A stretch of DNA of 26,927 nt from Candidatus Bathyarchaeia archaeon. GTDB taxonomy: Archaea; Thermoproteota; Bathyarchaeia; Bathyarchaeales; JAWCNH01. The notes under the pieces are model-generated. The model was not told where the DNA came from and made no database searches. It was given only the letters and a program-made list of their open reading frames with translations. How positions within the stretch are numbered: position 1 is the first letter of the stretch; each line of letters opens with the position of its first letter. Of the stretch, positions 1,011-20,820 are shown piece after piece. The stretch is taken from positions 1-26,927 of the forward strand of contig JAWCNH010000001.1 in NCBI GenBank assembly GCA_038848765.1, read 5' to 3'. A program made the position numbers and the translations under genes.

Positions 1011-1101
1011 GCTACACCTCACTTTTATACAGAATCGGAAGAATGCTTATTTAACACATATGAACCCAAAATCAATACCGAAAATAAACAATTCATGCAG
1101 G

Positions 1102-1689: not shown

Positions 1690-1738
1690 GAATTAATTCC
1701 TCATAAAGGGGAAGTAAAAGAAAAAAGGGATTTTAAAG

Positions 1739-2281: not shown

Positions 2282-2299
2282 TTTGTTTTTCACCTCCTT

Positions 2300-3266: not shown

Positions 3267-3776
3267 ATGCCCAAGGAAAAAATTGTCGTTTTAATGGGTT
3301 CGGATAAAGACTTCGCCTTTGCCTCACGCATCGGCGTTTTTCTTCAAGAAGCTGGGTTTCCAGTTGAATGTGAATATGAAGTTGCCTCTGCGCATAAGAC
3401 TCCGAAAAGACTTTTAGACATTTTGCAAAGCCAAGAAAAAACTGGAGACAACATTGTGTTCATAACCGTGGCTGGATTGTCTGACGCGCTTTCAGGCATT
3501 GTCGCTGGCAACACTAGGTATCCAGTGATCGCTTGTCCCCCAGACTCGGAAAAATATGGATGGGCTAAGGTCTTCTCTTCCACAATGACGCCTAAAGGGG
3601 TTGCTGTCGCCTATGTTCCTGAGCCCGAAAATGCGGCTCTGATGGCTTTGAAGATTTTAGCTTTATCCAACCCAAAGCTTCAGGAGAAAATTGTCTTTTT
3701 TAGGCGGAAAATGGAAGAAAAAGTTTATGAAGCAGCGGAAAACTTGAAGACGAAAACTGAAAAGGGCTCTAAATGA
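3267..3776 (+). CDS. purE: AIR carboxylase PurE, class II-like
   Basis: Motifs VLMGSDKD, SAHKTP, TVAGLSDALSG and YPVIACPP. Overlaps purC by ATGA. Confidence 0.93.
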   Translation: MPKEKIVVLMGSDKDFAFASRIGVFLQEAGFPVECEYEVASAHKTPKRLLDILQSQEKTGDNIVFITVAGLSDALSGIVAGNTRYPVIACPPDSEKYGWAKVFSSTMTPKGVAVAYVPEPENAALMALKILALSNPKLQEKIVFFRRKMEEKVYEAAENLKTKTEKGSK

Positions 3777-4618
3777 CAAGTTTGGACGTTGTCTTGTCAA
3801 CAGAGTTGCCTCTCCCATTGTTTAAGCGTGGAAAAGTTAGAGACATATACGATTTAGGCGATAAACTACTCATTGTCTCCACGGACAGAATTTCCGCCTT
3901 CGACGTTATATTATCCGATGGCATACCATACAAAGGCGAAGCGCTAAACAGACTATCCGCCTACTGGTTTAACCAAACAAGACATATTGTTCCGAACCAC
4001 ATTCTAGACGTGGTGGACACAAGAACAGTTTTGGTCAGGAAAACTATCCCAATAAAAATCGAGTTTGTCGTAAGAGGATACCTGTACGGTTCAGCATGGG
4101 AAAACTACGCAAAAGGGAAACCCACCTGCGGAATCCAGCTCCCAAAAGGTTTGAAAAAGGCGGAAAAACTACCCACCCCAATCTTGTCGCCGACAACAAA
4201 GGCGGACGTGGGGCACGATGTAGAAATAAGCCAAAAAGAAGTTGTTAAACTGATTGGAAAAGACAAAGCGGAGCAAATAGGGGAAATCTGCCTAAAAATT
4301 TACCAAGAAGCCTCAAAGAAGGCAGAGGAAAACGGCATAATCATCGCAGACACAAAACTTGAATTCGGCTTCTACAAAGGCGAAATCCTCCTCATCGACG
4401 AATTATTTACCCCAGACTCATCAAGGTTCTGGCCTTTAGACAAATACGAAGTTGGAAAAGACCAGATTAGCTTCGACAAACAATACGTGAGAGACTATCT
4501 AACTTCCATCGGATGGAATAAGCAGCCTCCAGCGCCGAAATTGCCGCCCAAAGTTATTTTTGAAACGTCCAAAAAATATGTTGAAGCCTATGAAAGGCTG
4601 ACTGGCAGAAAATTCTGA
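3773..4618 (+). CDS. purC: SAICAR synthetase
   Basis: Motifs RGKVRDIY, TDRISAFD, EFVVRGYLYGS, IADTKLEFG, DELFTPDSSRFW and DKQYVRDYL. Confidence 0.97.
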   Translation: MTSLDVVLSTELPLPLFKRGKVRDIYDLGDKLLIVSTDRISAFDVILSDGIPYKGEALNRLSAYWFNQTRHIVPNHILDVVDTRTVLVRKTIPIKIEFVVRGYLYGSAWENYAKGKPTCGIQLPKGLKKAEKLPTPILSPTTKADVGHDVEISQKEVVKLIGKDKAEQIGEICLKIYQEASKKAEENGIIIADTKLEFGFYKGEILLIDELFTPDSSRFWPLDKYEVGKDQISFDKQYVRDYLTSIGWNKQPPAPKLPPKVIFETSKKYVEAYERLTGRKF

Positions 4619-4669: not shown

Positions 4670-6103
4670 ATGCCTATTGAAAGAGAAGAAATGCAGGAAA
4701 TCGTTAAAAAATATAGGGAGCCGATTGGGCTTAACTTAGGTTCACATTCAGCCCTTGATGCGTGGCAAGGTCAAAGGAATTATGGTTTAAGAAGTATAAT
4801 TTACGTGACGCCTCAGAGGGCGAGGATTTATCTTCAAAACCCGATGGTGGGTAAACCAGACGAAAGTGTGGAAGATTTACCCTTGCTTGTTAGAAGGGAT
4901 TTGAAAGTTGTGAACGATTTAAAAGACGTGAGGAAGAATGGCGACTGGCGCAGCATAATATTCATTGTAGAAAAGTATTCCCACATAGTGAAGTATGTTG
5001 ACCAGCTAATAGATTTGGAATGCTTGCAAATTCCCAACCGAGCCTTCGCAGTCTACGTCGGAGGCGACGAAAACTGCAGCGTAATCGAAAACGACTTTGC
5101 AGTTCCCATAGTTGGCTCAAGAAGGCTGTTGAAAATCGAGAATAGGGGCGAAATAGAAAAAGACTACTACTGGTTCGCGGAAAAGGCTGGTATCCCCTAT
5201 CCACAATCCTACCAGTTTGAAGTTTACGAAGAAGGCATAAAATTCAAAAACCCAATAGAAGAGCCGATCTTGCTGAAGGCAGAACATGCCCACAGAGAGT
5301 TCGAAAGGGAATTCATTTTTGCCGCTGACTCGCAAGACTTGGAAGAAAAAGTGAGACGTGAAGTAAAGGCTGGAAATCTGGATAGAAAAAGCTTGGAAAA
5401 TGCGAGGGTTGAGCAAATCGTTCTGGGGCCGCATGCCAATTTTAACTTCTTCTTTTCACCTCTAGACGCCAAAAAAGAGTGGGGCGACGTAGACGACTGG
5501 TATTCAAAACTTTACAATGTCAGCCTTGAAGAGGCAAGGACATGCCTAGCCAACCAGTTCTTATCCATAGATGAACGAAGAGAGACGATACTGGACGGTG
5601 TGAAACGTTTACCAGCGGATGTGCAAGAAAAAATTAAGAAGGTTCCATCCTTCGAGGTTACTGCGCATGTAGCCATGAGCTTAAGGGAATCCCTCTTAAA
5701 AGATATGCACCGATACGCTGACCGCTTTCTTCTAGCCACAAAACAATACGAACCACCTGGAATCATCGGCGCTTGGTGTCTCCAAACCTTAATCACGTGG
5801 GATAAAATATCAAAATATGAATTGAAGCCTACAGTGAAAGTTGACCTAACACTTGGCACAGAAGCAAAAACTGCGGTGGATTACGGCTTATACGATGTTC
5901 CTTCTGGAAGAGAACCTTACATGCATATTCCAGTAACGCAAGACGTCGCCCTGCGTCACGGAGGCGGAACAAACGTTCACATGGGCGTAGGCTCCCAATA
6001 CGCAAACGCAAAATACATGCGACCTATGAGCATGGGCGATAGGATAGCTCTAGAAATCCGAAGGGCATGGAAAGAAGGTTTGCTTTCAGAAATTGTCACA
6101 TAA
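4670..6103 (+). CDS. purP: PurP-family ATP-grasp protein (formate-phosphoribosylaminoimidazolecarboxamide ligase-like), divergent and enlarged
   Basis: Motifs GSHSALD, IPNRAF, SLRESLL, PPGIIGAWCLQ, GGGTN and SMGDRIALEI match the PurP (DUF1246/DUF1297) family. It is 477 aa against about 360 aa for MJ0136-type PurP. Confidence 0.85.
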   Translation: MPIEREEMQEIVKKYREPIGLNLGSHSALDAWQGQRNYGLRSIIYVTPQRARIYLQNPMVGKPDESVEDLPLLVRRDLKVVNDLKDVRKNGDWRSIIFIVEKYSHIVKYVDQLIDLECLQIPNRAFAVYVGGDENCSVIENDFAVPIVGSRRLLKIENRGEIEKDYYWFAEKAGIPYPQSYQFEVYEEGIKFKNPIEEPILLKAEHAHREFEREFIFAADSQDLEEKVRREVKAGNLDRKSLENARVEQIVLGPHANFNFFFSPLDAKKEWGDVDDWYSKLYNVSLEEARTCLANQFLSIDERRETILDGVKRLPADVQEKIKKVPSFEVTAHVAMSLRESLLKDMHRYADRFLLATKQYEPPGIIGAWCLQTLITWDKISKYELKPTVKVDLTLGTEAKTAVDYGLYDVPSGREPYMHIPVTQDVALRHGGGTNVHMGVGSQYANAKYMRPMSMGDRIALEIRRAWKEGLLSEIVT

Positions 6104-6115
6104 ACAGGTGAAAAA

Positions 6116-7198
6116 GTGCCGGAAAGCTTCACTTACGCCCAAGCAGGAGTAAACAGAAAATTAAGGGCAGAATCAAAAGCTGCGTTGAAAATTCTGAGGC
6201 AAACCTACAAGTTTAGTCGTTATGGGAGGGTTGTCCAACTTCCTTATGGCAACATTTTCCCAATTGGCGGAAACCGTTACCTAGACTTGGTCATTGAAGG
6301 CGTCGGTACAAAAGTTTTGTTGGCACAGTTGGCAAACAAATACGACACCATAGGAATAGACGCAGTAGCCTTGGCGGTGAACGATGTCATAAGGTCTGGC
6401 GCCAAGCCAATAGCAATCTCAGACAACATCCATGCACACGTTTCCGACCCTTACCTCGTAAAAGAATGGATGAAAGGCATTGTGAAAGCCGCTGAAGAAT
6501 CCGAATGTATCGTGCCAAGCGGAGAAATCGGCGACGTTGCTGAAATAATTCGGGGCTTAGTCGAAGGAAAAGGCTTTGACATGGTCATTGCATGTGTGGG
6601 CGAACTCTCACGCCGAAACATAATTTTTGGAAACAACATAAAACCAGACGATGTTGTGATTGGCTTTAGAAGTTCAGGGATTCACAGCAACGGCGTAACC
6701 TTAGCGAGAAAAATTCTGTTTAAACAGTGGGGCGGCAAATACAACCCCTTTGACGTCCCAGACGGATTCAACCGAGAACTGGTCTACGAAGTTTTAGAAC
6801 CCATGAAAATCTATGTAAAACCCTTTTTGAATCTGGCTAAAGAAGTGAAAATAAAAGGCGCAGTGCACATAACAGGCGACGCCTACCTCAAATTTGACAG
6901 GTTAATGAAGTTTTCTAAGGGAATAGGATTCGAATTCAACAATTTCAAGCCCCAACCGATTTTTGAACTAATCCAGAAAACGGCGAAAGAAATTCGCCGT
7001 CCAGTTACGGACGAGGAAATGTTGAAAACATTCAACATGGGCTGGGGCTTTGCGGTCATAATAGAAAAAGCAGAAGCAGAAAAAGCCATTGACACCCTAG
7101 AAAAAACCAAATGCCAAGCAGAAGAAATAGGATACGTGACGAATTCGCAGAGAATTGTTGCCTTATATAAAAACAGAAAAATTTTACTAAAGCAATAG
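6116..7198 (+). CDS. purM: AIR synthetase (phosphoribosylformylglycinamidine cyclo-ligase)
   Basis: Motifs TYAQAGV, EGVGTK, GIDAVALAVND, SSGIHSNG, HITG and TFNMGWG. GTG start with GGTGA upstream. Confidence 0.95.
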   Translation: MPESFTYAQAGVNRKLRAESKAALKILRQTYKFSRYGRVVQLPYGNIFPIGGNRYLDLVIEGVGTKVLLAQLANKYDTIGIDAVALAVNDVIRSGAKPIAISDNIHAHVSDPYLVKEWMKGIVKAAEESECIVPSGEIGDVAEIIRGLVEGKGFDMVIACVGELSRRNIIFGNNIKPDDVVIGFRSSGIHSNGVTLARKILFKQWGGKYNPFDVPDGFNRELVYEVLEPMKIYVKPFLNLAKEVKIKGAVHITGDAYLKFDRLMKFSKGIGFEFNNFKPQPIFELIQKTAKEIRRPVTDEEMLKTFNMGWGFAVIIEKAEAEKAIDTLEKTKCQAEEIGYVTNSQRIVALYKNRKILLKQ

Positions 7199-7266: not shown

Positions 7267-7518
7267 ATGCGATACAAAGCCAAAATAGAAATAAGCCTTA
7301 AACCTGGGCATTCAGACCCAGAAGGACAGACTACTGCGCGTTCTTTACGGGAGCTTAACTATAAGGTTGTGGAAGTTGCCGTAAGTAAGGTCTACACTGT
7401 TGTTTTTGAGGCTAAGACAAGAAAAGAGGCTGAGAAGCATGTGGAAGAAATGTGCCGCCGATTGTTGGCGAACCCTACAAAGGACAATTTTCAATACGTG
7501 ATTGAGGAAATAAAATGA
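7267..7518 (+). CDS. purS: FGAM synthase subunit PurS
   Basis: 83 aa with LKPGHSDPEG and RLLANP. Overlaps purL by ATGA. Confidence 0.95.
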   Translation: MRYKAKIEISLKPGHSDPEGQTTARSLRELNYKVVEVAVSKVYTVVFEAKTRKEAEKHVEEMCRRLLANPTKDNFQYVIEEIK

Positions 7519-9890
7519 GCCAACTTTTTATTGAGCATAAGTTGCCCTTCAAACTTTTCGAAATCAACATCTTAGAGGCTGATGGCGAAAAACTGTTAAA
7601 AATTAGCCAAGAAATGGGTTTAGGCTTAAACCTAGAAGAAATGATGGTGATTCAACAATATTTTTCAAGGAAAAGAAGGAACCCAACCGACGTCGAACTT
7701 CAAACAATTGGACAAACATGGTCAGAACATTGTTTCCATAAGACTTTCAAGGGAGAGATAACCTTCGGCAGGAACCAAATAGACGGACTTTTCAACACAT
7801 ACATAGCCAAAGTCACAAAAGAACTGAAACCTTCATGGTGCCTCTCCGTCTTCGAAGACAATGCGGGCATAATCGAATTTGAAAATGGTTATGCAGTAGC
7901 CGTTAAAGTTGAAACCCATAATCATCCATCAGCCATAGAACCCTTCGGCGGAGCAGCAACTGGAGTAGGCGGCGTCATAAGAGACATATTGGGCGTTTGG
8001 GCAGACCCAATAGCGTGCATGGACGTTTTGGGTTTCGGACCGCTAAATTATGACTATGGGCAGTTGCCTTTAGGCGTTAAGCATCCAAAATACTTGTTTA
8101 AAGGCGTGGTTGCTGGCATTGGCTGTTATGGCAATAACATGGGAATCCCAACGGTGAACGGTGCCGTATGCTTCGACGAAAGCTATGTGGGCAATGTCGT
8201 AGTTTACTGTGGTTGTGTCGGCATTCTTCCATGGGACAAATTCGTTAAGAATGTAAAGCCAGAAGACATTATTGTTTTGGCTGGCGGAAAAACTGGTCGT
8301 GATGGAATTCACGGAGTAACTTTCGCCTCTGCAGAACTAACTGAAAAATCGGAGGAAGTTTCGCGGCCAGCTGTGCAGATTGCGAATCCAATAGAGGAAG
8401 AGAAGCTTAAGCGAGCCATCATTGAAATCCGAGACAAGAAACTGGCTTCAGCCATAACCGACCTCGGCGGCGGAGGCTTATCCTCGGCTGTTGGAGAAAT
8501 GGCGCATAGATTTAAATGCGGCGCACATGTGGAGTTAGACCGTGTTCCATTGAAGTATCCAGACATGGCTCCTTGGGAAATCTACATTTCAGAATCACAA
8601 GAAAGAATGCTTTTGGCGGTTCCAAAGAATAATCTTCCAGAAACCTTGAAAATCTTCGCAATGGAAGATGTGGAAGCCACACCGATTGGCAAGTTCACAG
8701 AAGATGGAATCCTTAGAATTCATTATAGAGAGTCTCTTGTTGCAGAATTGGACATTTCCTTCCTTTTTAGCCCTCCAAGGATTAGGAGAAGAGCTGAATG
8801 GAAAGAACCAGACCTAGAAGAGCCAAGTTTTCCAGAACCGCAAAAACTGGGCGATTATGTTCTGAAGCTGTTGTCTTCGCCTAACATTGCAAGCAAAGAA
8901 TCAGTGATACGAACTTATGACCATGAAGTGAAAGGAAACACTGCGCTTAAACCGCTCCACGGCGAGTATGGGGGACCAAACGACGCTGCAGTGCTTAAGC
9001 CCTTAAACGATTCTTGGAAAGGCTTGGTCATATCTTGCGGCATTAATCCAAAATATGGTAAAATTGACCCTTACTGGATGGCTGCTTCTTGCATTGACGA
9101 AGCCATAAGAAACAATGTTGCAGTTGGCGGAAGAAGAATAGCTTTGCTTGACAATTTCACCTGGGGCAGCCCAGAACATGCAGACAGACTTGGCGCCCTT
9201 TTGAAAGCCTGCCAAGCATGTTACGAGTTTTCTAAAGGCTTTGAAACGCCCTTCATTTCTGGAAAAGACAGCCTCTATAATGAGTCGCCACTAGGTCCAG
9301 TAACGCCTACATTATTGATAACAGCTGTGGGCATCATTCCAGACATTAGAAAAGCTGTTTCACTCGACTTAAAAACGCCTGGAAACAATGTCTACGTGGT
9401 TGGTAAGACGTATCCAGAACTTGGCGGTTCAGCCTACTATGACTTGATGGGTTTTATTGGGAAGTCTGTTCCAAAAGTGAGGGTTAAGGAAGCAAAAAAA
9501 ATCATAAATGCAGTAACAAGTGCCATTGACGCTGGCTTTGTTAAGGCTTGTCATGACCTTTCTGAAGGCGGTTTGGCTGTGGCTGCTGCTGAAATGGCTT
9601 TAAGCAGCATGTTTGGAGTGGAACTTTATTTGAAAAAGGTTCCCTACTCTTCTTGGCAAAAAAGAAACGACTTCATTCTCTTCTCAGAATCAAACAGCCG
9701 TTTCCTTCTAGAAGTTGCAGAAAAACATGCGAACGAATTCAAATCCTTAATGAAAGGCATAACATGCGCCCAAATTGGAAAAGTGACTGAAAAACAGGCT
9801 CTAACCATTTATGGCTCAAACAATAAGCCGCTACTCGAAATTGGATTGGATGAACTTCGGAGAATCTGGAAAAGCGGGTTGGAAGGCTAA
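7515..9890 (+). CDS. purL: FGAM synthase synthetase subunit PurL
   Basis: Motifs WSEHC, KVETHNHPSAIEPFGGAATGVGGVIRD, DLGGGGL, SESQERM, ISGKDS, HDLSEGG and FSES. Confidence 0.97.
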   Translation: MSQLFIEHKLPFKLFEINILEADGEKLLKISQEMGLGLNLEEMMVIQQYFSRKRRNPTDVELQTIGQTWSEHCFHKTFKGEITFGRNQIDGLFNTYIAKVTKELKPSWCLSVFEDNAGIIEFENGYAVAVKVETHNHPSAIEPFGGAATGVGGVIRDILGVWADPIACMDVLGFGPLNYDYGQLPLGVKHPKYLFKGVVAGIGCYGNNMGIPTVNGAVCFDESYVGNVVVYCGCVGILPWDKFVKNVKPEDIIVLAGGKTGRDGIHGVTFASAELTEKSEEVSRPAVQIANPIEEEKLKRAIIEIRDKKLASAITDLGGGGLSSAVGEMAHRFKCGAHVELDRVPLKYPDMAPWEIYISESQERMLLAVPKNNLPETLKIFAMEDVEATPIGKFTEDGILRIHYRESLVAELDISFLFSPPRIRRRAEWKEPDLEEPSFPEPQKLGDYVLKLLSSPNIASKESVIRTYDHEVKGNTALKPLHGEYGGPNDAAVLKPLNDSWKGLVISCGINPKYGKIDPYWMAASCIDEAIRNNVAVGGRRIALLDNFTWGSPEHADRLGALLKACQACYEFSKGFETPFISGKDSLYNESPLGPVTPTLLITAVGIIPDIRKAVSLDLKTPGNNVYVVGKTYPELGGSAYYDLMGFIGKSVPKVRVKEAKKIINAVTSAIDAGFVKACHDLSEGGLAVAAAEMALSSMFGVELYLKKVPYSSWQKRNDFILFSESNSRFLLEVAEKHANEFKSLMKGITCAQIGKVTEKQALTIYGSNNKPLLEIGLDELRRIWKSGLEG

Positions 9891-9892
9891 TC

Positions 9893-10711
9893 ATGCAGAA
9901 GCAAAGCATTAATGTTTGCATTCTCCGAGTCGGCGGAACCAACTGCGACATGGAAACTCAACGGGCTTTCAACGATTTAGGCGTAAAAGCGGAAATAGTT
10001 CATTTCAACGAAATCCTACGTAAAAAAAGCTTGTTTGACTATGACGCCCTTGTTCTTCCAGGAGGCTTCTCTTATGGCGATTATGTGAGGGCTGGAGCCA
10101 TTTGGGCAAAGGGAATCGTTGCCAAACTTGGCCCTAGCCTAAAACGTTTTGTAAAGGAAGAGAGACCCATCCTTGGCATTTGCAACGGCTTCCAAGTTCT
10201 TGTTGAGGCGGGTTTGCTGCCAGGCTTTAGGGGAGTAAGCAAGTATCCCACAGCGGCTTTGGCGCCGAATGTTCCGTCTGGATATAATTGCAGATGGGTT
10301 TACATCAAACATGAAAATAATGGCAATTGCATCTTCACGAGAAAAATCGATAGAAAGGCTGTGTTGAGGGTTCCTGTGGCTCATTCGGAAGGTCGCTTTA
10401 TTTTTCCCAAAGAAAAAGAGAAGGAGTATTTGAAGAAGCTTTACAAGAATGACCAGCTGGTTTTTCGATACTGCCATGCAAATGGAGACTATGCGGAAGG
10501 TGAATATCCAGCCAATCCTAACGGTTCTTTTCACGACATCGCTGGAATCTGCAACTCAAACGGAACAGTCTTCGGCTTAATGCCACATCCAGAGAGAGCC
10601 TACTATGGCTGGCAACTGCCGGACTGGACTCGGAAAGAGAAGGTTCCTCAATACGGCGATGGAAAACTAATCTTCGAATCCATGATAGAATATTTAACCA
10701 AAAAGTTATAG
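9893..10711 (+). CDS. purQ: FGAM synthase glutaminase subunit PurQ
   Basis: Motifs GTNCD, PGGFSYGD, LGICNGFQ (catalytic Cys), AHSEG, NPNGS and MPHPER. Confidence 0.97.
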   Translation: MQKQSINVCILRVGGTNCDMETQRAFNDLGVKAEIVHFNEILRKKSLFDYDALVLPGGFSYGDYVRAGAIWAKGIVAKLGPSLKRFVKEERPILGICNGFQVLVEAGLLPGFRGVSKYPTAALAPNVPSGYNCRWVYIKHENNGNCIFTRKIDRKAVLRVPVAHSEGRFIFPKEKEKEYLKKLYKNDQLVFRYCHANGDYAEGEYPANPNGSFHDIAGICNSNGTVFGLMPHPERAYYGWQLPDWTRKEKVPQYGDGKLIFESMIEYLTKKL

Positions 10712-11419
10712 ATAGGCAAACAACTCATCAAGCCTTGATATTCTCATACAGTTCTCGTTTTTATGCAATCCCTTTCTATCAAGCAGCAGGGCTTTCATTC
10801 CCACGGATTTGGCTCCAAGATAATCCTCTTCGTATTTATCTCCTACATGCATCATTCTTGTTAAAGGCGTGTTGGAAAGTTTTGAAGCAATTTTAAAAAT
10901 TTCCGGATTAGGCTTCTCATATCCCACAGTGCCAGAAGCAACCAAAACGTCAAAGTAATTGCCTAACCCAGCCTTATCGAGATAAATTCTTAGATTCTTT
11001 TCTGAAGAAACATTGGAAACCGCAATTACCCGTATTCCCCTTTGCTTAAGCATTTTAAGGGTTGGTTCAGCGTCTTCGTAAGCTTGAAAAGCTGCCTTCT
11101 GAAACCAAAGGTTAGAAAGCTTCATGGCAAGTGTATTCGGGTTAGACAGCCCCAGAGTTGCCACCATTTTTTTAAGCAAACTAATCCTCATATCGTCATT
11201 CCAAATCTTGTCTGTTCTCGCTTTTTCTTCAAGCCAACATGCACGCGCCGATTCTAATGCTTCCTTAACTACGCTATCATTAACGTCGTAACCTAACTCG
11301 TTTAAAATCTCTTTATAAACAACAAATTCTTGAACCGCTTCATAATATAAAGTGCCGCCGCAGTCAAGCGACACTGTTTCTATATTAGAAGTTTTTGAAA
11401 TCCTTAAGTTCGTGGGCAT
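10706..11419 (-). CDS. HAD-IA family hydrolase (REG-2-like)
   Basis: Motif I SLDCGGTLY, motif II VSN, KPNPEIF and motif IV HVGDKYEEDYLGA. The start is uncertain because it overlaps the upstream kinase gene by 35 nt. Confidence 0.88.
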   Translation of the reverse strand: MPTNLRISKTSNIETVSLDCGGTLYYEAVQEFVVYKEILNELGYDVNDSVVKEALESARACWLEEKARTDKIWNDDMRISLLKKMVATLGLSNPNTLAMKLSNLWFQKAAFQAYEDAEPTLKMLKQRGIRVIAVSNVSSEKNLRIYLDKAGLGNYFDVLVASGTVGYEKPNPEIFKIASKLSNTPLTRMMHVGDKYEEDYLGAKSVGMKALLLDRKGLHKNENCMRISRLDELFAYL

Positions 11420-12299
11420 ACGGCAAGCCTCTCCTAGCGCCTATTTTTTCTATACATTTCGAAGCCACAAAATTTCCCAAGCGACCGCACTCACGCAAAT
11501 TCTTTCCTTTCAACAAACCGTATAAAAAGCCGGCGTTGAAGGCGTCGCCAGCACCTGTCGTGTCAACAACTTTCGCTTTAAACGGTTCTACGTGACACGC
11601 TTCTTTCCCATCCGTCACGTAGCATCCTTTGGCGCCAAGTTTTACAGCGACTATGTCCACGCCCATTTCGACAAACATTTCTGCGCCTTCCCTATAGCCC
11701 TTCCCAGTAAGCAACTTCATTTCGATTTCGTTCAGAAACAAGACAAAGCATCTTTTTATAATGGATTCTAGGCTTGTTAAACCCTTTCTCGCATATATCG
11801 TGCCTGGGTCAAGACTTACTTTGACTGAAGAGGGAATTTTTTTGACCAGTCTTTTTTGTGTTTCAAAGGATGTTTCGCCCACAAAAGAAGTTAAGTGTAG
11901 AAAACTTGTGTTTTCTGCGTATTTGACATTTATTTCTTCATATTGAATTGTGCTGTTAACGCCTGGGTCTACGTATAGGGCTCTTTCGCCGTTTTCGTCG
12001 ACAAAACCTAGAACAACTCCGCTTCTTCCCTTCTTAGAGACTATTATTCCGTCAATGTTAACGCCTTCTTTTTCAAAGTCTTTTAAGAGTAGTTTTCCTT
12101 CAATGTCTTGCGCTATTTTCCCTATATAGCCTACCTTCAAGCCTAATCTGGCTAAGCCAACAATTGTGTTTGCTGCTGAGCCTCCGCAAGCTTGTTTGAA
12201 ATTTTTTATGAAGCTTTCCTCGTCTTTTCCAGCAATTTTGTTTACTCTGTAAAGTTTGTCTACGTTTAAAGCGCCGAAACCCACAACGTCGAATTTCAT
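11385..12299 (-). CDS. PfkB/ribokinase-family kinase (EhaT-like)
   Basis: Motifs [15 protein letters not shown] and [12 protein letters not shown]. The start overlaps the stop of the ftr-like gene (ATGA-type overlap). Confidence 0.93.
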
Positions 12300-13207
12300 G
12301 GAAACAACTCTCTTAAATAAATCTTGTATTTTCCAAGTTTTCCGCCATAGTTTCCTGCAGAAATCTTCACAACATTTTCCACGTCAAGAATGCTTTCAAT
12401 TCCAGCCTTCATTGCCTCTTTCACTGCCTTTAAGGAAATGCCGTTGATCACTATTTCTGGAATATATTTTACGCCTTTTGGAACTTTCGACTCTTTCCCA
12501 AGTCTCTTTTTTAGTGAAGGGCAGTAGGGGTGGTTTGTTGTTGGTCCTATAGCTGGAAAACGAGTTTCTGGCTTCGAACCAGCGGAACACACGTCGAAAG
12601 GGGTAATGACTCCTTCCACTCGTCCAATAGCGTCTAAAGCCTTTCTTCCAGCCCTTTTTACGGCTTCTTTTGTTTTGCACATGTACCAGAAGTTGGCTCC
12701 GCATACTCCACGTGCATAGCCTATGTAACGTTCTATGTGAAAGTCTGGAACCATTATTGGAACAACAATCATGCGGCGTTCATAAAGTTGTTCTTCCCAC
12801 TCAAAACTGTCTCCACAATGGCCTACCAACTCCATCATGTCAATTTTTCCTTCTGCATTCGCCGTCGCGTCAAAAATTCTTGTGAAAGGTTTGACAAGAA
12901 TGTCTTGCCGAATCCGATAGGACAATTCTTTGGCAAACTTTCGAAGAACTTCTTCAAAGGGCTTGTCTGTTCGGAGTTCTCCCCAAAACTGCAAAACAGC
13001 GCCAAACCTTTTGTCCGGCGTTTCTTCTGGCTTTAACCATTTTTCCACTCCGCCTTCTGTTCTGCCAACAACTACTGCTGGTGTGGCTGTCGCATCTTCA
13101 GCAGCCTTTCTCAAAGTTTTTTTATCATCCGCAGTAACTATTACTCTGCAGTAGAGCCCTTCAAAAGCTTCTGCAAATGTATCTTCAACCTCTGCCTTCT
13201 GCTCCAA
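12296..13207 (-). CDS. ftr: Formylmethanofuran:H4MPT formyltransferase-family protein, divergent paralog (EhaS/Ftr-II-like)
   Basis: Motifs [32 protein letters not shown] and [11 protein letters not shown] are Ftr hallmarks. TTG 13207 follows GAGGAG; the ORF track start is TTG 13222. Confidence 0.9.
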
Positions 13208-13235
13208 AATTTCTCCTCTCAAATTTTAATTTCTT

Positions 13236-14315
13236 TTAGCCTAACCTGCCTATAGCCTCTCCTCTAACTTTTTTCCTAAATTCGCTGCTTTCTTTCCTCA
13301 GTCTTTCCATATTGTCTGAAGTTATGATTTCAATTTTAGGAAATTTTTTAGGCCACAATTCAAGAGCAAGCTTCGTTAAGCTTTGGTTTACATCATATTT
13401 CTTTAGGGCTTGGTGGCTCCAGTTTTCTACAAGCTTTAAGGTTTTTTCTTTGCCTAATCTCTGGAAAGTGTCGGCAAGGATTGAAGTTGCAAGGGTGTTG
13501 TGGGCGAGGACTGCGACTTCTGCCTCTCTTATGGCGTATTGGTTACCGTTAAAAGAAACAGTTAACCCTCCAAACCTTCTAACAAGCCTAAAACATTCCA
13601 CATCTGTAATGCTGTCGCCCACATACATGACATTATGCAACTGGCTTTCCAGTCGCTTAACAATTTCCTTCAAAATATTTGCTTTCTCTAAACCGCCAAC
13701 TGGATTTACCTCTTCCAAAATCTTTCCAGATTGCATCTGCTGAATTTCATTCCAGAAAATTTCGTTTAGTAGGCTAATTGTTTTTAGGCTTGTTTCTGAT
13801 AATTCTTGCAGAGACTTGACGCCTACTGGAATTTCTATTTGGGGTGCTTTTGCGATTTCTTGGGCAATTTCTTGAAGCCTTTTCTTTTCTTTTAGGCTTA
13901 TTTTGTATTTGTCAATGTCAAGTTTTGTTGAGTAAGTGTTTTCAAATGGGAAATCGGTAGCTTCACATAAAGCCCTTATGTAATGTTCATAGCTGGTGCT
14001 TAAAATGAAGGAGGGCATGATGCCCTTAACATAGCTTAGCGTTTCTTTTGCTCCTGGCATTAGCAGAATGTTCCTAATGGAAAACTCTTTCATTTTGCTG
14101 TTTGTTACGTCATATGCCCTCAAAAAGGGTAGAATCAGCCTTAACGTGTCTCCAGCCTTATAACCTGGCTTTTTTACAATGTCGGCGAGAACGTCGTCGT
14201 ATCTGCTTATTGTTGTGAAAAGTTTTTCTCCGTTTGGAATAAAGTTGCATGTTAATTCAAATGCGTTGTCGTTTTTTGATATTGGTCCCTCGCAGTCGGA
14301 AACAAAAATTCTCAA
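13236..14315 (-). CDS. EhaR-like protein (archaeal HAD-fold, predicted phosphatase)
   Basis: N-terminus MRIFVSDCEGPISKNDNAFEL, STSY and YVGDSITD (HAD motifs I, II and IV). The N-terminus matches proteins annotated as energy-converting hydrogenase A subunit R, recalled from memory. TTG start lies 1 nt after the purD stop. Confidence 0.8.
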   Translation of the reverse strand: MRIFVSDCEGPISKNDNAFELTCNFIPNGEKLFTTISRYDDVLADIVKKPGYKAGDTLRLILPFLRAYDVTNSKMKEFSIRNILLMPGAKETLSYVKGIMPSFILSTSYEHYIRALCEATDFPFENTYSTKLDIDKYKISLKEKKRLQEIAQEIAKAPQIEIPVGVKSLQELSETSLKTISLLNEIFWNEIQQMQSGKILEEVNPVGGLEKANILKEIVKRLESQLHNVMYVGDSITDVECFRLVRRFGGLTVSFNGNQYAIREAEVAVLAHNTLATSILADTFQRLGKEKTLKLVENWSHQALKKYDVNQSLTKLALELWPKKFPKIEIITSDNMERLRKESSEFRKKVRGEAIGRLG

Positions 14316-14316
14316 A

Positions 14317-15726
14317 TTATTTGCGCCTCAATTGTTTCATGTGCTGGATGGTTTTTTGAATATGCTCTTTTGAGGCTATGTCTGTGCGGTTCCAGAGGGC
14401 TCCGCCTCGTATGACATTTATTCCTTCTAGGGAGATGTCCCTAGCCTCTTGAATGTTGTCGCCTATGCCTACAACGCATACTGCCCTTGAGCCTAACGCA
14501 TAAATTTCATTGTCTCTTTGTTCCACTGAAGCGGGATAAACCCTTATTCTGTCTCCATATTTCTCGCTTAGTCTGTACGCCTCGTCCAGAACCACAGGCG
14601 TCCCAATTTCTTCTTTTCTAACCTTTTGCGGAAAGGCTTCTTGGAAGCCTCCATAGGAAGGTGGAACCTTATAGGTGACTACGGTTGCTTTTCCTTCAAA
14701 CTCTACATGGGAGAGGTTTCCTTCAACGATTTTGAAACAGACGTCCACGAAATCATCATTTAAGATTGGTAGAAGGTTTTGTATTTCTGGGTCGCCTGGT
14801 CTGCTGTTGTTCTCCAAAATTTTTAATCCATTGGCTGTGTGGATGAAAGCCACGTAGAAGGGTATGCCACGCAAACCAGATTCGACGTTCTCTCTTCTCA
14901 ATCCTTCGAAAATTTTGTTTACTATGGCTATTTCTTTTTCTCTGTCGGCTTTTGTCATGAAAGGAAGCCATTCGCCCACGTCTTTGTATGAGCCCATTCC
15001 TCCAGTGTTTGGTCCCCTGTCTCCGTCGAAGGCTCTCTTATAGTCTCTTGTTTCTGGCAAGGGCACTAGATGTTTTCCGTCGCAGAAGGCTTGGAAACTG
15101 GATTCTTCGCCCTCGATTTTTTCTTCTATTATGACTTTGCCATGTTGATAATTCGCCAAGAAATGTTCGAAGAGTTGTTTTCTCGTGGTGAAATGGTCGC
15201 CCCAAACTCCTACGCCTTTTCCCGCGGCTGGAGCATCTGGCTTCACGACAGCCTTGTTTTCTAGTTGGTCAAGCCAAGCATATACTTCCTTTTCAACCTC
15301 TCCAATGCTTGCAAAGTTTTTGGGGTTGAAAACTTTGAATTTCGGGTTTGCCTCTGGCACAACTTTTTCGAATAGTCTGCGCTGTTCCACTTTGCTTTTT
15401 TCTATTGCGCAATGTTGTGTAGGGCAAATCACGGGTATCTTTGTCTCTTTTTCTATTAGGTTTCTGATTCCTTCAATTATTGGTTTTTCTGGTCCAACTA
15501 TTGCGAAGTCTATTTCCTTTTGGTTTTGTTTGGCAAACTCGCAAATTTTGTTTATGTCGAGTGTGGGCACAACAACGTGTTTCGCTGCCCTTTTTAGGTT
15601 GTAAGGGTTTCTTTGTTTATCCACAACATAGATTTTAACATCATAGTTTCGGCTTCTGCTAAATGCATCTATCATTGCTGCCTCTCTGGCGCCGTAGGAA
15701 ACAACTAGGACGCCGACTTTTTCCAT
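14317..15726 (-). CDS. purD: Phosphoribosylamine-glycine ligase (GAR synthetase)
   Basis: Motifs VGPE, KPDAPAAGKGV, IEEKIEGEE, DYKRAFDGDRGPNTGGMGSY and NSRPGDPE. ATG 15726 follows GAGGGG; the track start is TTG 15738. Confidence 0.95.
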   Translation of the reverse strand: MEKVGVLVVSYGAREAAMIDAFSRSRNYDVKIYVVDKQRNPYNLKRAAKHVVVPTLDINKICEFAKQNQKEIDFAIVGPEKPIIEGIRNLIEKETKIPVICPTQHCAIEKSKVEQRRLFEKVVPEANPKFKVFNPKNFASIGEVEKEVYAWLDQLENKAVVKPDAPAAGKGVGVWGDHFTTRKQLFEHFLANYQHGKVIIEEKIEGEESSFQAFCDGKHLVPLPETRDYKRAFDGDRGPNTGGMGSYKDVGEWLPFMTKADREKEIAIVNKIFEGLRRENVESGLRGIPFYVAFIHTANGLKILENNSRPGDPEIQNLLPILNDDFVDVCFKIVEGNLSHVEFEGKATVVTYKVPPSYGGFQEAFPQKVRKEEIGTPVVLDEAYRLSEKYGDRIRVYPASVEQRDNEIYALGSRAVCVVGIGDNIQEARDISLEGINVIRGGALWNRTDIASKEHIQKTIQHMKQLRRK

Positions 15727-15761
15727 TGAACCCCTCAAAGAATCATGAAGTTAAACTCTTT

Positions 15762-17270
15762 TTAACTTTGGGGTTTTTCAATTATGCTGAACATTTCATA
15801 AAGCCTTCCAGTTTCCTTATACCCTTTTTCAAAGAGTTGCCTCATTTCGTCAGCCATTTTTTGAGCCAAGGGCGTTGGATATTTTCCAGTAACGCATGCC
15901 AAACAAAGTTCATCTTCACGCATTCCGGTTGCGCGGATAAACCCGTCCAGCGACTGATAATTAACCGAGTCTGCGCCGATAATCTCAGCTATTTCATCCG
16001 CTTCATGAGTAGACCCGATAAGTTCGCTGTAAGTCGCCATGTCAATTCCGTAAGGGCATGGACCGATAATGCGTGGAAAAGTAATAAATAAATGAACCTT
16101 TTTGGCTCCCATTTTACGCAGTTTTTCCACAATAACCTTGGTTGTGTCTCCACGAACTATGCTGTCTTCGACAACGGCAAGATTTTTTCCTTTAATTTTT
16201 GATTCTAAAACATTAATTTTTCTATCTATGGTCGTGTATCGTTCTTGAGGCAATAATATGAATGCCCGTTCTGTAACATATCGGTGTCTCCTTAAGGCTC
16301 GTTCCCATCGAATTCCCGTCTCCATGTGAAGCCCAAAGGCTGCGTCATCGCCAGTTTCTGGCATGGAAACAATTATGTCGGTGCTTCTAACAATGTCTGA
16401 ATATTCTCTTGCAAGGTTTCTCCCGAACTCTTCCCTCACTTCATACACGTATTTATCGTCAAATTTGGAGTCTGGACGAGCGAAATAGGCGAATTCGAAA
16501 CCGCAAAAAGCTTTTCTCTCCCCACTTACCAGTCGTTCACGGTGGAAACCGTCCTCTGACACGGTGATAAATTCGCCTGGCACTACTTCGAAAGCATGCT
16601 CTAGGCTGTTAATGTTTAAACCCACGCTTTCTGAGGACGCTGCGTAAATTTTGCGGTTTTGGCTGTAGCCGCAGCAGAGGGGTCTTATGCCATGTGGGTC
16701 TTTGAAGATGAAAAATTCTCCGTCTTGGTTTATGCCAGCAACGGAGAAGGCGCCTTCAATTTCTTTCATGCAAGCCTTAACAGACAATTTTATGTCATGG
16801 GTTTTCATGTATTCAATAAGCAGTTTTCTGCAAATCAGCTCCGCATCGCATTCGTAGGCAAAATCTGGGAAAACTTCGCAAATTTCCCTTTTTAGCTGAA
16901 CTGCGTTAACAACATTGCCGTTAAACGAAAGGGCAAATTTTGTTTCTCCTGATTCTGCAACGACTGGCTGTGTCCCCCTAATTAACGCTTGTTCGTCAAC
17001 GCCACCAGAAGTTGTATATCTCACGTTTGCAATGCCTAAATGCCCAGGAAGCCTATCCAGCCAATCTTGAATATCCCTCTTCTTTATTTTCGGAACCAAA
17101 TCCAAACCCTTGTGGGCATGGAATTTTCCGTCAAACGTTAGAAAACCATGCGACTGGTGACCACGATGGTTTTGCGCTCTTAAACCCCAATAAATGGTTG
17201 GAAATATCGGGTTATGGCTGAAATCTACTGCGCCGAAGACCCCGCATGCTATTTTTAAACTGTCTATCAT
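15762..17270 (-). CDS. purF: Amidophosphoribosyltransferase (Fe-S type, with propeptide)
   Basis: MIDSLKIA|CGVFG, HRGHQS, RYTT, NGN, CGFEFAYFARPDS, DSIVRG, CPYGIDM and CLAC. ATG 17270 is preferred over TTG 17291. Confidence 0.96.
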   Translation of the reverse strand: MIDSLKIACGVFGAVDFSHNPIFPTIYWGLRAQNHRGHQSHGFLTFDGKFHAHKGLDLVPKIKKRDIQDWLDRLPGHLGIANVRYTTSGGVDEQALIRGTQPVVAESGETKFALSFNGNVVNAVQLKREICEVFPDFAYECDAELICRKLLIEYMKTHDIKLSVKACMKEIEGAFSVAGINQDGEFFIFKDPHGIRPLCCGYSQNRKIYAASSESVGLNINSLEHAFEVVPGEFITVSEDGFHRERLVSGERKAFCGFEFAYFARPDSKFDDKYVYEVREEFGRNLAREYSDIVRSTDIIVSMPETGDDAAFGLHMETGIRWERALRRHRYVTERAFILLPQERYTTIDRKINVLESKIKGKNLAVVEDSIVRGDTTKVIVEKLRKMGAKKVHLFITFPRIIGPCPYGIDMATYSELIGSTHEADEIAEIIGADSVNYQSLDGFIRATGMREDELCLACVTGKYPTPLAQKMADEMRQLFEKGYKETGRLYEMFSIIEKPQS

Positions 17271-17461
17271 AGTTGCTAGATTATAAGACAACTATATATC
17301 AATTTTTGTAACAGCTTTAAATAAATTTTACACATTTACGTATAACACGGAATGTTCGATATCTGATATATAAATTTTTAAGCAACTTCTGCGTAAATTA
17401 TCAGTGAAATAAAAAGGGTAGGAGGGGTTTTCTTATATCATTTAAATCCCTTATTTTTTCC

Positions 17462-17745: not shown

Positions 17746-18921
17746 CTAAACCACTGCTGTTTCTTCTGCCTTCTTAATCAAAGTTTCCTTTTTATCCAAT
17801 GGGACAATGACGTTTGCTGCGTATTTATGGCCGTCTGCAAAGCCGAATCCCTCAGAAGCCTTTGTTAACAGTTGCGCCGCGCCCAACAGTTTTCCTTCAT
17901 CGATAAGTTTTTGCATGGTCTTTGGAACTCTCACAGAAGCTTTTACAAATTTCTGTTTGAGTTTTCCCCAGTTTGGAATCTCTAGCGGGACGTTCACGAA
18001 GCCCAAAATGTATTTGTTGGGTTTTATTAGACGGGTTTGGTAGGATAGGAAAGAGCAGAATTGTCCTATGACTTTTGTTCCCATACCCTCATACATGTCT
18101 GCTGCGTCAAACCATTGAATGTGGTTCGTTTCTTTCAGCCTCTCCCGATAAAGCCTCGCCAAAAGTCTCTTGTTAATTTCCTTTCTTTTTGCTTCCAATT
18201 CATCAACCTTAACTTTAACATTTTCCGTTAAGCCTTCTATACATGCTTTTATTCCAAGCTCTGGTCCACCTTCATAATATCCTACTGGACCAAGAATCTG
18301 AAGCTTCGAAAATAAATCGTCAATGCGGACGCCTAACTTTGCGATTTCATAAGATTTCCCCTTAACATAAACAACTCTATTTTCTAGGGATTCGTTCAAC
18401 ACCACCTTATTAAGCCCGAGAAATCCTTGTGGAATTTCGCAACTGCCTACAAGGGCTAGATAGGAGAGATCAGTGTTTCTTTCGTTAAGCGCCTTTGCAA
18501 AAAGATAGCATATGGTGGCGCCGGAAAAATCCGTCTCGCCTTGAAAGCCATAATGCTCCAAATTAAGGTCATAAACCTTTGGGTCCGTCGCTTTTGCTGG
18601 GTCGTGGTGATCCAAAATTATGGTGAGGTTTCGTGTTTTGTTGCATTCTGAAATAAAGTCTGCGTGGGACGAGGCTATGTCTGCATAAACAATAGCTTTG
18701 CCTTCGCCTTCATGCAATTTCTCAATTACTTCTGGATAGACTTTCTCCAAACAAAACATTTTCACATTGTAGCCTTCCCGTTCCAGCGCTGCCTTCACGA
18801 TTGCTGCTGAGCATAAGCCATCGCCATCATCATGATGAACAAGAAGCACATTATCCGTGCCTAGCTTTTTAAATTCGAAAATCGCTTTACTAACTTTTTC
18901 TCCGAATGCTTCAAGGTTCAT
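17746..18921 (-). CDS. DHH-family phosphoesterase (RecJ/DHHA1-like)
   Basis: Motifs HHDDGDG, YADIA, ILDHH, DFSGAT and C-terminal DGHKYAA. Confidence 0.88.
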   Translation of the reverse strand: MNLEAFGEKVSKAIFEFKKLGTDNVLLVHHDDGDGLCSAAIVKAALEREGYNVKMFCLEKVYPEVIEKLHEGEGKAIVYADIASSHADFISECNKTRNLTIILDHHDPAKATDPKVYDLNLEHYGFQGETDFSGATICYLFAKALNERNTDLSYLALVGSCEIPQGFLGLNKVVLNESLENRVVYVKGKSYEIAKLGVRIDDLFSKLQILGPVGYYEGGPELGIKACIEGLTENVKVKVDELEAKRKEINKRLLARLYRERLKETNHIQWFDAADMYEGMGTKVIGQFCSFLSYQTRLIKPNKYILGFVNVPLEIPNWGKLKQKFVKASVRVPKTMQKLIDEGKLLGAAQLLTKASEGFGFADGHKYAANVIVPLDKKETLIKKAEETAVV

Positions 18922-18972: not shown

Positions 18973-19497
18973 TCAAAGCGTCTTGCTAACGATTTTCAGC
19001 AAATCTGAACGTGTAATAATGCCTACGACCTCTCCCTTTTTGACCACAAGCACGCCTGGATGGTCTTCTAGTAAGTGGCGAATCATGCTTACGTTTGTTT
19101 CTTCTGGAATGCTTGGAAGCGGAGGCTCCATGATTTTTTCCGCTGTTTCCTCAGCTATTTTCGAGCTTAAATTTTTTATTATGCTTTCTTCCGTGACTGT
19201 GCCTATTATTTTTCCTTTTTCTTTAACTGGCACTTGCGATATGGCGTGTTTTCTCATGATTTCGCTTATTTTTAAGACTTTTTCGTTCGGCTTTACGAAG
19301 ATAACGTTTTTCGTCATTATGTCTTTGCATTTTTTGCCTTCGCCTTCTGTGAGTACTTGAAGAATCTTGTTTACCGTGGAAAGCCTAGGGTCAACTTTTC
19401 CTTTCTCAATTTTTGCTATGTGCGCCTGAGATACGCCGACGAGTTGGGCTAGTTGTTTCTGTGTCATGTTGGCTTCTATTCTTAATTTCCTTAACAT
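18973..19497 (-). CDS. Transcriptional regulator, XRE-type HTH plus tandem CBS domains
   Basis: LRKLRIEANMTQKQLAQLVGVSQAHIAKIEKGKVDPRLST, followed by two CBS repeats (ISQVPV...GTVT; VLVVKKGEVVGIITRSDL). The true start may be ATA 19512. Confidence 0.92.
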   Translation of the reverse strand: MLRKLRIEANMTQKQLAQLVGVSQAHIAKIEKGKVDPRLSTVNKILQVLTEGEGKKCKDIMTKNVIFVKPNEKVLKISEIMRKHAISQVPVKEKGKIIGTVTEESIIKNLSSKIAEETAEKIMEPPLPSIPEETNVSMIRHLLEDHPGVLVVKKGEVVGIITRSDLLKIVSKTL

Positions 19498-19518
19498 TTG
19501 CCCAGTGATTATCGTTTT

Positions 19519-19533
19519 ATAACCTCTGGTTAT
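19519..19533. promoter_or_regulatory. 6-3-6 inverted repeat overlapping the putative SD of the HTH-CBS gene, in the divergent HTH-CBS/mat promoter region
   Basis: ATAACC-TCT-GGTTAT. Confidence 0.35.
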
Positions 19534-19605
19534 TTATTATGTAATTTTGATATCGCAAAATATATATTTGTTTCTGTTTATACGTGTGCAGCAAGGCGAA
19601 CGTGT

Positions 19606-20820
19606 ATGACTTTAAGAAATATATTGGTAGATTGTTTAAGGCAAACGCCTATTGAACAGCAGAAAATCGAAATTGTTGAAAGGAAGGGGCTTGGGCACCC
19701 GGATTCTATATGTGACGCCATTATGGATAGGATATCAGTTAGGCTAAGTCAAGAATACTTGAAGAAGACAGGGGAGATTAGACACCATAACATTGACAAA
19801 TCCTTGCTGGCAGCCGGCGAAGCGGAAACACGATTCCAAGGAGGCGCAATTAAGAAGCCTATGCTCCTAATTATAGGCGACAGAGCAACCTTTGACGTTG
19901 GCAATGTGCACATACCAGTGGATGAAATTGCAGTTCAAACAGCCAAAGAATGGTTCAAGGAAAAACTGCGTTTCGTAGACCCGGAAAGGCATGTGCTGTA
20001 TCAAGTGGAGTTGAAGCCTGGGCATCCTGAGTTGATGGATATTTTTGAAAGGAAAGGGAAAGTTTTGGGCGCTAATGACACTTCTGCTGCTGTTGGTTAT
20101 GCCCCCATGACCAGAACGGAAAAAATTGTTTTGGACATAGAAAAATATGTGAATTCACCAGAGTTTAAGAAGAGATTTCCAGAGTCGGGCGAAGATGTGA
20201 AAGTTATGGGTTACAGAAAAAACAATGCTTTACATTTAACGCTGGCCATGGCTTTTGTGGACAAATACGTGGAAAGTGAAGATGACTATTTCAGAAAGAA
20301 AGCGGTGCTTCATGAGGAAATTTGCAGTTTTGTGAAGGAAAACACAAGTTTTGACGAGGTTAAAGTTGACCTTAACACTTTGGACATGAGAGGGAAAGGA
20401 ATAGAAGGTGTATATCTAACTGTAACTGGCACAAGCGCTGAAAGCGGAGACTCTGGGCAAGTGGGCAGAGGCAACAGAACAAACGGCGTCATACCCTTAA
20501 ACAGACCTTTCTGCTCCGAAGCTGCGGCCGGAAAAAACCCAGTAAGCCACGTGGGGAAAATTTACAATTCGCTTACTCATAAAATTGCAAATGAGGTTTA
20601 TAAGCGGGTTTCTGGCTTGGAAGAGGTTTACATTTGGCTTTTAAGTCAAATTGGCAAGCCTATTGACCAACCAGCTATTGCGGCTGCTCAAGTTGTTATG
20701 AAGGCGAATAACTCTTTTGAAAGCGTTAAAAGCGAAATAGAAGAAGTGATTAATCACGAGTTAGAAAATATAGATAAATTCTGTGAAGACTTGGCTGAAG
20801 GGCGGATAGCCATACACTAA
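19606..20820 (+). CDS. mat: Archaeal-type S-adenosylmethionine synthetase
   Basis: Motifs EIVERKGLGHPD, HHNIDK, GANDTS, DSGQVGRGNR and AGKNPVSHVGK. ATG 19606 (MTLRNILVD) is preferred over the upstream track start. Confidence 0.96.
   Translation: MTLRNILVDCLRQTPIEQQKIEIVERKGLGHPDSICDAIMDRISVRLSQEYLKKTGEIRHHNIDKSLLAAGEAETRFQGGAIKKPMLLIIGDRATFDVGNVHIPVDEIAVQTAKEWFKEKLRFVDPERHVLYQVELKPGHPELMDIFERKGKVLGANDTSAAVGYAPMTRTEKIVLDIEKYVNSPEFKKRFPESGEDVKVMGYRKNNALHLTLAMAFVDKYVESEDDYFRKKAVLHEEICSFVKENTSFDEVKVDLNTLDMRGKGIEGVYLTVTGTSAESGDSGQVGRGNRTNGVIPLNRPFCSEAAAGKNPVSHVGKIYNSLTHKIANEVYKRVSGLEEVYIWLLSQIGKPIDQPAIAAAQVVMKANNSFESVKSEIEEVINHELENIDKFCEDLAEGRIAIH

Follow-up and report, generated by a model that had tools for sequence, protein, structure and literature searches.

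Known systems and the present locus

Two enzymes, PurN and PurT, are known to formylate glycinamide ribonucleotide (GAR) in the third step of purine biosynthesis. No GAR formyltransferase could be identified in the Archaeoglobi, the Methanobacteriales and M. kandleri, which are purine prototrophs without folates (Brown et al. 2011, PMC3261824), and the Archaeoglobi are reported to have neither PurN nor PurT (PMC3261824). From another direction, a divergent and uncharacterised second clade of formylmethanofuran:tetrahydromethanopterin formyltransferase (Ftr), termed Ftr2, was described in ANME-1 and other euryarchaea (Chadwick et al. 2022, PMC9012536); it occurs in the Archaeoglobi, Methanobacteriales and M. 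kandleri groups along with ANME-1, and the absence of PurN and PurT from ANME-1 is given in a separate section of the same work (PMC9012536). Likewise, in Methanothermobacter the Ftr-like EhaS and the ribokinase-like EhaT are co-transcribed with the eha genes, their role being unknown (Kaster et al., PMC3087415). Here, we describe an Ftr homolog, ftr2 (12296..13207, minus strand), that lies within a purine gene supercluster of a Candidatus Bathyarchaeia archaeon. The window analysed is a stretch of 26,927 nucleotides (nt; assembly GCA_038848765.1, contig JAWCNH010000001.1, positions 1 to 26,927), and the source is a metagenome-assembled genome of 1.07 Mb in 143 contigs that is 77% complete.

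The Ftr2 protein is a paralog of canonical Ftr with a residue signature of its own, its gene largely keeps the same neighbors across its Bathyarchaeia relatives, and in the position after purD its module alternates with genes for PurN-like proteins or PurT. On these grounds, Ftr2 is a strong candidate for the enzyme that has been reported missing in archaea since 2011. The reading that we favor, if by a modest margin over even chances, is that it acts as a formyltransferase for GAR, or for the corresponding riboside, fed by the methanofuran (MFR)/tetrahydromethanopterin (H4MPT) pool of one-carbon (C1) units. No paper in the literature collection searched joins Ftr or methanofuran to a GAR formyltransferase.

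A second class of Ftr

The minus-strand open reading frame (ORF) of ftr2 spans 308 amino acids (aa) from a TTG at 13222 to 12296, and the residue numbers used below are counted from it. The start is probably the TTG at 13207, which is preceded, with a spacing of 6 nt, by a Shine-Dalgarno-like GAGGAG run and gives a length matching that of the homologs (301–304 aa); close homologs carry names from Bathyarchaeia. Both lobes of the Ftr fold are recovered at full length by the Pfam models FTR (148.9 bits) and FTR_C (189.9 bits), with no Pfam match outside these two families and no homology to PurN or PurT; as a GAR formyltransferase, Ftr2 would thus replace them without being their homolog. The protein aligns end to end with the solved Ftr of A. 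fulgidus, M. barkeri and M. kandleri (E-values of 1e-50 to 3e-52) and, more distantly, with FhcD (2e-28). An AlphaFold model built from a 60-sequence alignment has a mean predicted local distance difference test (pLDDT) score of 93.9, its confidence being lowest, besides the residues N-terminal to the likely start, at residues 211–230; it superposes on 1M5S, 1FTR and 1M5H with template-modeling (TM) scores of 0.88–0.91 and root-mean-square deviations of 2.0–2.5 Å.

In a maximum-likelihood tree of the Ftr family (102 rows, quick search, midpoint root), a canonical-type clade of 39 rows, with a Shimodaira–Hasegawa-like approximate likelihood ratio (SH-aLRT) support of 99, unites the canonical representatives, a Planctomycete FhcD-type protein, the Asgard copies and all Bathyarchaeia copies of the canonical kind (Ftr1). 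The window protein falls in the second clade (56 rows, SH-aLRT 92) with every Bathyarchaeia Ftr2 and with proteins named at NCBI from Methanospirareceae (ANME-1), Syntropharchaeia, Hydrothermarchaeota, Methanocellales, Altiarchaeota, ‘Pyrohabitans’ and Aenigmarchaeota; these mates from outside Bathyarchaeia bear a nearly identical signature at 15 checked positions. This clade would correspond to the Ftr2 clade described by Chadwick et al. (PMC9012536).

Copy number points the same way. When 151 Bathyarchaeia genomes, each 85% complete or more, were searched with the window protein, the matches fell into two groups, namely Ftr2 orthologs at 52–76% identity and canonical Ftr1 at 35–42%. An Ftr2 ortholog is present in 60 of the 151, and 54 of those 60 have a canonical copy as well. 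The Pfam model of the N-lobe also separates the two kinds, scoring 168–206 bits for Ftr1 and about 148–159 bits for the type seen in the window. The initial annotation had viewed the protein as a remodelled paralog and proposed a family tree and a search for a second, canonical ftr as checks. Its view is supported by the placement in the tree, where the protein stands apart from the characterised Ftr and FhcD and inside the Ftr2 clade, by an 18-position signature, by the presence of two copies per genome in relatives, and by a score of 229.9 bits that falls under the 292.6-bit cut-off of the fhcD/Ftr equivalog TIGR03119. The second copy itself turned up in the relatives only: in the source genome (77% complete), Ftr2 was the sole copy found, and no canonical ftr was seen. 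As FwdA and Mch are present there as fragments at contig ends, the canonical ftr probably went unassembled.

The signature emerged when 146 Ftr2-type members of the clade that includes the window protein were set against 42 Ftr1-type sequences. Eighteen positions have switched across the family, nine in each lobe: Y16, L37, P48, G57, R105, V110, M130 (an insertion), C136 and I152 on the N-terminal side, and G192, S213, A214, T220, P223, I225, P227, T228 and P255 on the other. The window protein departs from its family in having F at position 16, where the family has Y, and in S139 of its HCGDS motif, where the family has G. Six of the switches (G105R, T110V, F136C, W152I, A227P and S228T) fall at positions that are near-invariant from archaeal Ftr to bacterial FhcD, and have changed in 86–100% of the 146 Ftr2 sequences, a share also put at 96–100%. 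In the window protein these positions are occupied by R, V, C, I, P and T. Three aromatics of Ftr1 are lost, i.e., F136 (invariant in Ftr1), W152 (86%) and Y255 (76%), while Arg105 is gained and invariant in Ftr2; the residue just before the catalytic Glu has gone from Tyr to Pro. Conserved in both classes are 55 positions, including that Glu (E256), the A289/N291/G293-G297 motif and G215-S216-K217. When the protein is aligned with the solved Ftr, E256 falls on the Glu of their YEIVING motif, and it is invariant in the 60-sequence alignment; the catalytic residue is Glu245 in M. kandleri Ftr and Glu252 in FhcD (PMC6926001).

All motif strings quoted by the initial annotation are present in the ORF: EDTFAEAF at residues 13–20, HCGDS at 135–139, S-A-G-S-K at 213–217, PEIVING at 255–261 with Glu256, and the rest at 47–58, 103–114 and 288–297. 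The canonical forms with which it contrasted them agree with the solved Ftr and with the 42 Ftr1-type sequences, and the changed central motifs (P48/G57, R105/V110 and C136) proved to be genuine signatures of the clade. Its description of a kept C-terminal core with changed central motifs holds in part. Identity to Ftr1 is higher in the C-lobe (40–45%) than in the N-lobe (31–33%), so the C-lobe is the better kept of the two, though not untouched: residues 213–228 and 255 have switched too, and with nine of the 18 switches in each lobe the remodelling is not confined to the center. Its further proposal, that one substrate site has been retained and the other altered, is conjectural, as is the choice of pocket.

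These data bear directly on whether Ftr2 might be an isoenzyme that performs the same transfer between formyl-MFR and H4MPT, e.g., as an anabolic copy supplying C1 units to biosynthesis. Consistent with such a role, the fold is fully kept (TM 0.88–0.91), the catalytic Glu is shared with Ftr1 along with the 55 conserved positions, the protein scores above the threshold of NF002554, a subfamily model for Ftr (344.7 against 297), and Ftr2 is the only Ftr found in the incomplete source genome. We nevertheless hold this to be improbable, as the positions that stay invariant from archaeal Ftr to FhcD are the ones switched in 86–100% of the 146 Ftr2 proteins, a canonical copy is retained in 54 of the 60 genomes with Ftr2, the score lies under the equivalog cut-off, and purine step 3 would be left without an enzyme.

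The gene slot after purD

On the minus strand of the window, the genes follow one another as purF-purD-HAD-like-ftr2-pfkB, and then comes a gene for an HAD-IA hydrolase; a set of plus-strand purine genes faces this string. The string opens with purF, encoding an amidophosphoribosyltransferase (15762..17291; 313 bits, under the 350-bit cut-off), and a purD of divergent type, encoding GAR synthetase (14317..15738; 273 bits, under the 288-bit cut-off). It continues with a 359-aa HAD-fold protein (13236..14315), with ftr2, and with a ribokinase-like kinase of the PfkB family (11385..12299), whose start overlaps the ftr2 stop as ATGA. The purine steps that have no gene in the window are only 3, 8 and 10, and neither a PurN domain nor PurT was found in the source genome (77% complete).

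Sixteen loci were fetched from several Bathyarchaeia families, and each has the order purD-HAD-like-ftr2-pfkB. A survey of 80 further species gave 68 loci in which the gene immediately upstream of the HAD-like one could be assessed, and it was purD in all 68. On the other side, ftr2 and pfkB come directly downstream of the HAD-like gene in 60 of 71, one more having its ftr2 match split in two. Where the module is broken up (five genomes checked), ftr2 and pfkB stay paired and are followed by purQ in three cases and by purL in a fourth; in a more distant subclade, the HAD-like gene, ftr2 and pfkB are all adjacent in other orientations. Open frames of 674–796 aa had suggested a fusion of the HAD-like protein with Ftr2, which was rejected since a stop codon lies between the genes and Ftr2 ends normally.

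The same slot is filled differently in relatives without Ftr2. The gene directly after purD encodes PurN or a PurN-like protein in eight loci and a PurT-like one in two; of the latter two, the one scanned proved to be a true PurT, reaching 482 bits with NF006766 (cut-off 339). The distribution over whole genomes is complementary: PurD is found in 132 of the 151 genomes, and of these 56 have Ftr2 only, 61 a PF00551 (PurN-like) domain only, 10 a PurT-like protein only, one both Ftr2 and PF00551, and four none of them, counts that come from related genomes and not from independent samples. An independent sample is provided by the phylum of GCA_002011125.2 (21 genomes), in which PurD is present in 21 of 21, Ftr1 with Ftr2 in 20, the HAD-like protein in 20 and PurT in none, with two weak matches to PF00551; the HAD-like gene is missing from the same single genome as Ftr2. 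The connection with nucleotide synthesis that had been drawn for this Ftr homolog at the outset is strongly supported by synteny and by a post-purD slot occupied in turn by PurN-like proteins, PurT or the trio.

PurD itself comes in two classes in Bathyarchaeia, canonical (above 300 bits with TIGR00877) and divergent (about 222–281 bits, under the cut-off), and with few exceptions the trio occurs in genomes of the divergent class. The association is not strict, because family f9 combines a divergent PurD with a PurN-like protein and one genome combines a canonical PurD with the trio. In one single-contig genome, a partially matched HAD-like gene, ftr2 and pfkB occur with purF, and no PurD match was obtained genome-wide at E 1e-30.

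A possible role in purine step 3

The partners of Ftr2 retain motifs typical of their families. In the HAD-like protein, the complete set of four HAD motifs is present (D7-x-E9, S106-S108, K211 and G233-D234-x3-D238), and its only solved relative is A. fulgidus AF1437 (PDB 1Y8A, deposited as a ‘hypothetical protein’; profile E-value 4e-49). By language-model features, the clusters closest to it include one with the name EhaR (score 0.98), which we take as a lead toward an EhaR relationship and not as proof; a profile search with this protein returned 80 loci, all from Bathyarchaeia and none from Methanobacteriales. The PfkB-family kinase, which is EhaT-like, keeps the N-terminal ribose motif G-x-x-N-x-D (here G-A-L-N-V-D) and the DTxGAGD motif (here DTTGAGD), and scores best against models of ribokinase and ribose-1-phosphate kinase.

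In the favored reading, Ftr2, together with its HAD-fold (EhaR-like) and ribokinase-like (EhaT-like) partners, would formylate the glycinamide amine made by PurD, and the formyl group would come from formyl-MFR or N5-formyl-H4MPT and not from the 10-formyl-tetrahydrofolate (10-formyl-H4F) of PurN or the formate and ATP of PurT. The CH2-NH2 group of GAR resembles the aminomethyl group of methanofuran. Because the Ftr reaction lies near equilibrium (4.4 kJ/mol; PMC6926001), either direction would be chemically plausible. Candidate acceptors are GAR, glycinamide riboside and 5-aminoimidazole-4-carboxamide ribonucleotide (AICAR), and the parts assigned to the donor and to the partners are likewise putative.

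The last of these acceptors would place Ftr2 at step 9. An amine on a ribotide is formylated by similar chemistry there, and the initial annotation had named AICAR as an option. We give it very little credence, given that a purP of the formate-dependent formyl-AICAR synthetase type (4670..6103, plus strand; DUF1246 and DUF1297) already provides for step 9 in the window, the ftr2 module follows purD and not purB or purC, and the genes with which it alternates, those for PurN-like proteins and PurT, are step-3 enzymes.

A more elaborate and distinctly speculative version of the step-3 reading, to which we attach a low probability, would turn the trio into an ATP-driven bypass by dephosphorylation, formylation and rephosphorylation. 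The HAD-fold protein would remove the 5′-phosphate from GAR; the resulting glycinamide riboside would be formylated by Ftr2, with formyl-methanofuran or N5-formyl-H4MPT as the direct donor; and the ribokinase-like enzyme would restore the 5′-phosphate to yield formyl-GAR. The gene order purD, HAD, ftr2, pfkB would then be the order of the reactions, and the cost would be one ATP, as with PurT.

Several observations weigh against the assignment of Ftr2 to step 3. It passes NF002554, the Ftr subfamily model mentioned above. The trio is not fully accounted for, as the simple transfer of a formyl group calls for no kinase and no phosphatase. Within Bathyarchaeia, 32 of the PF00551-positive genomes belong to family f19 and encode PurN-like proteins (about 270 aa) outside purine clusters (which follows from the purine genes of this family being unclustered); the one scanned reached 94 bits against a PurN cut-off of 150, and these genomes may use yet another solution for the step. 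In the phylum of GCA_002011125.2, the trio genes are dispersed and lie away from purine genes, with an HAD-PfkB pair in one genome, and some deeper members of the Ftr2 clade have other contexts, e.g., the Aenigmarchaeota copy beside genes for Prs and an HAD-IA protein.

From such contexts one could argue that the HAD-like/Ftr2/PfkB trio serves some other ribose-linked pathway, for instance the synthesis of a cofactor, the salvage of pentoses or nucleosides, or the supply of phosphoribosyl pyrophosphate (PRPP), and that its adjacency to purD reflects shared precursors. Its dispersal away from purine genes in the GCA_002011125.2 phylum, the Aenigmarchaeota member next to PRPP synthetase and an HAD-IA gene, the preference of the kinase for ribokinase and ribose-1-phosphate kinase models, and the co-transcription of the Ftr-like and ribokinase-like genes of Methanothermobacter with a hydrogenase operon (PMC3087415) would all suit this explanation. 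What makes it unlikely in our judgment is that purD stands directly upstream in all 68 assessable loci, that relatives have PurN-like or PurT genes in the same slot, that split copies stay with purQ or purL, and that searches for PurN/PF00551 and PurT disclosed no alternative step-3 candidate in the source genome or the GCA_002011125.2 phylum, apart from the two weak PF00551 matches.

Other features of the window and its relatives

The plus-strand purine genes that face the module are purE (3267..3776), purC (3773..4618), the purP already described, purM (6116..7198), an ORF of 83 aa (7267..7518) assigned to the purS position by location and size only, purL (7515..9890) and purQ (9893..10711). 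The HAD-IA hydrolase gene (10706..11419, minus strand) has a 35-nt overlap with the end of pfkB; none of the 16 related loci checked showed it next to the module, and in an Aenigmarchaeota contig an HAD-IA gene comes after the Ftr2-like gene. The purine cluster is flanked by genes for a RecJ/DHH-family protein (17746–18921), a CBS-HTH regulator (18973–19497) and an archaeal-type S-adenosylmethionine (SAM) synthetase (19498–20820), the latter two of which adjoin purF again in a few related loci. Four consecutive minus-strand ORFs (552–3013; 156, 195, 184 and 237 aa) matched no Pfam family.

A second string of partial purF, purD and HAD-like gene, identical in order, occurs on contig C141 of the same genome (1–2846), with 68% identity in PurD and 60% in the HAD-like protein; it probably derives from a related strain or a bin contaminant, or else from a segmental duplication. 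The stretch 10706–17291 is represented in eight public hot springs metagenome runs from two studies, at 72–95% of sampled words, and one of these runs may be the sample of origin. Some metagenomic contigs have strongly diverged Ftr-like genes beside genes for MCH-like proteins (methenyl-H4MPT cyclohydrolase family) and amidohydrolases, a different and apparently unstudied module built on an Ftr paralog; around six other representative clusters that were examined, no trio was seen, and some of them are Ftr-like genes that adjoin such MCH-like and amidohydrolase genes.

Implications and comparison with known systems

Were the step-3 reading correct, the methanofuran/H4MPT pool of the Wood-Ljungdahl or methanogenesis pathway would be the immediate source of purine C8 in many anaerobic archaea. 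The label ‘formylmethanofuran–H4MPT formyltransferase’ would then be wrong for thousands of genes, with a consequent distortion of C1 metabolism as deduced from metagenome-assembled genomes, and EhaR, EhaS and EhaT, three supposed hydrogenase subunits, would gain a function.

Against the canonical Ftr (EC 2.3.1.101; 1FTR/2FHJ, 1M5H and 1M5S) and FhcD (6S6Y), Ftr2 shares the two-lobe fold (TM 0.87–0.91) and keeps the catalytic Glu, the GSK motif and the A-x-N-x-G-G-K-L-G motif, but differs in having only 31–38% identity and in forming a separate clade. Moreover, relatives carry it alongside a canonical copy, and its gene sits in a purine operon instead of among C1-pathway genes. In comparison with PurN and PurT, the likeness is one of position and distribution, with the same slot after purD and complementary occurrence among PurD-positive Bathyarchaeia, whereas the folds are unrelated and Ftr2 comes with two extra enzymes. 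The presumed donors differ accordingly, formyl-MFR or N5-formyl-H4MPT for Ftr2 as against 10-formyl-H4F for PurN and formate with ATP for PurT. The HAD-like partner has the D-x-E form of motif I and the GDSIxD form of motif IV in common with AF1437.

The HAD-like, Ftr-like and PfkB-like genes are adjacent in the window in that order, which we take to be also the order of EhaR-EhaS-EhaT in Methanothermobacter. The latter three are the last genes of the ehaA-T operon (PMC3087415) and include Ftr-like and ribokinase-like members, as does the window trio. The two arrangements differ in that the window trio follows purF-purD and has no hydrogenase genes with it, and its kinship with EhaS itself is putative. 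Should the proposed bypass operate, the EhaR/S/T ‘subunits’ of the methanogen Eha operon would represent a purine module using the very C1 units that Eha replenishes.

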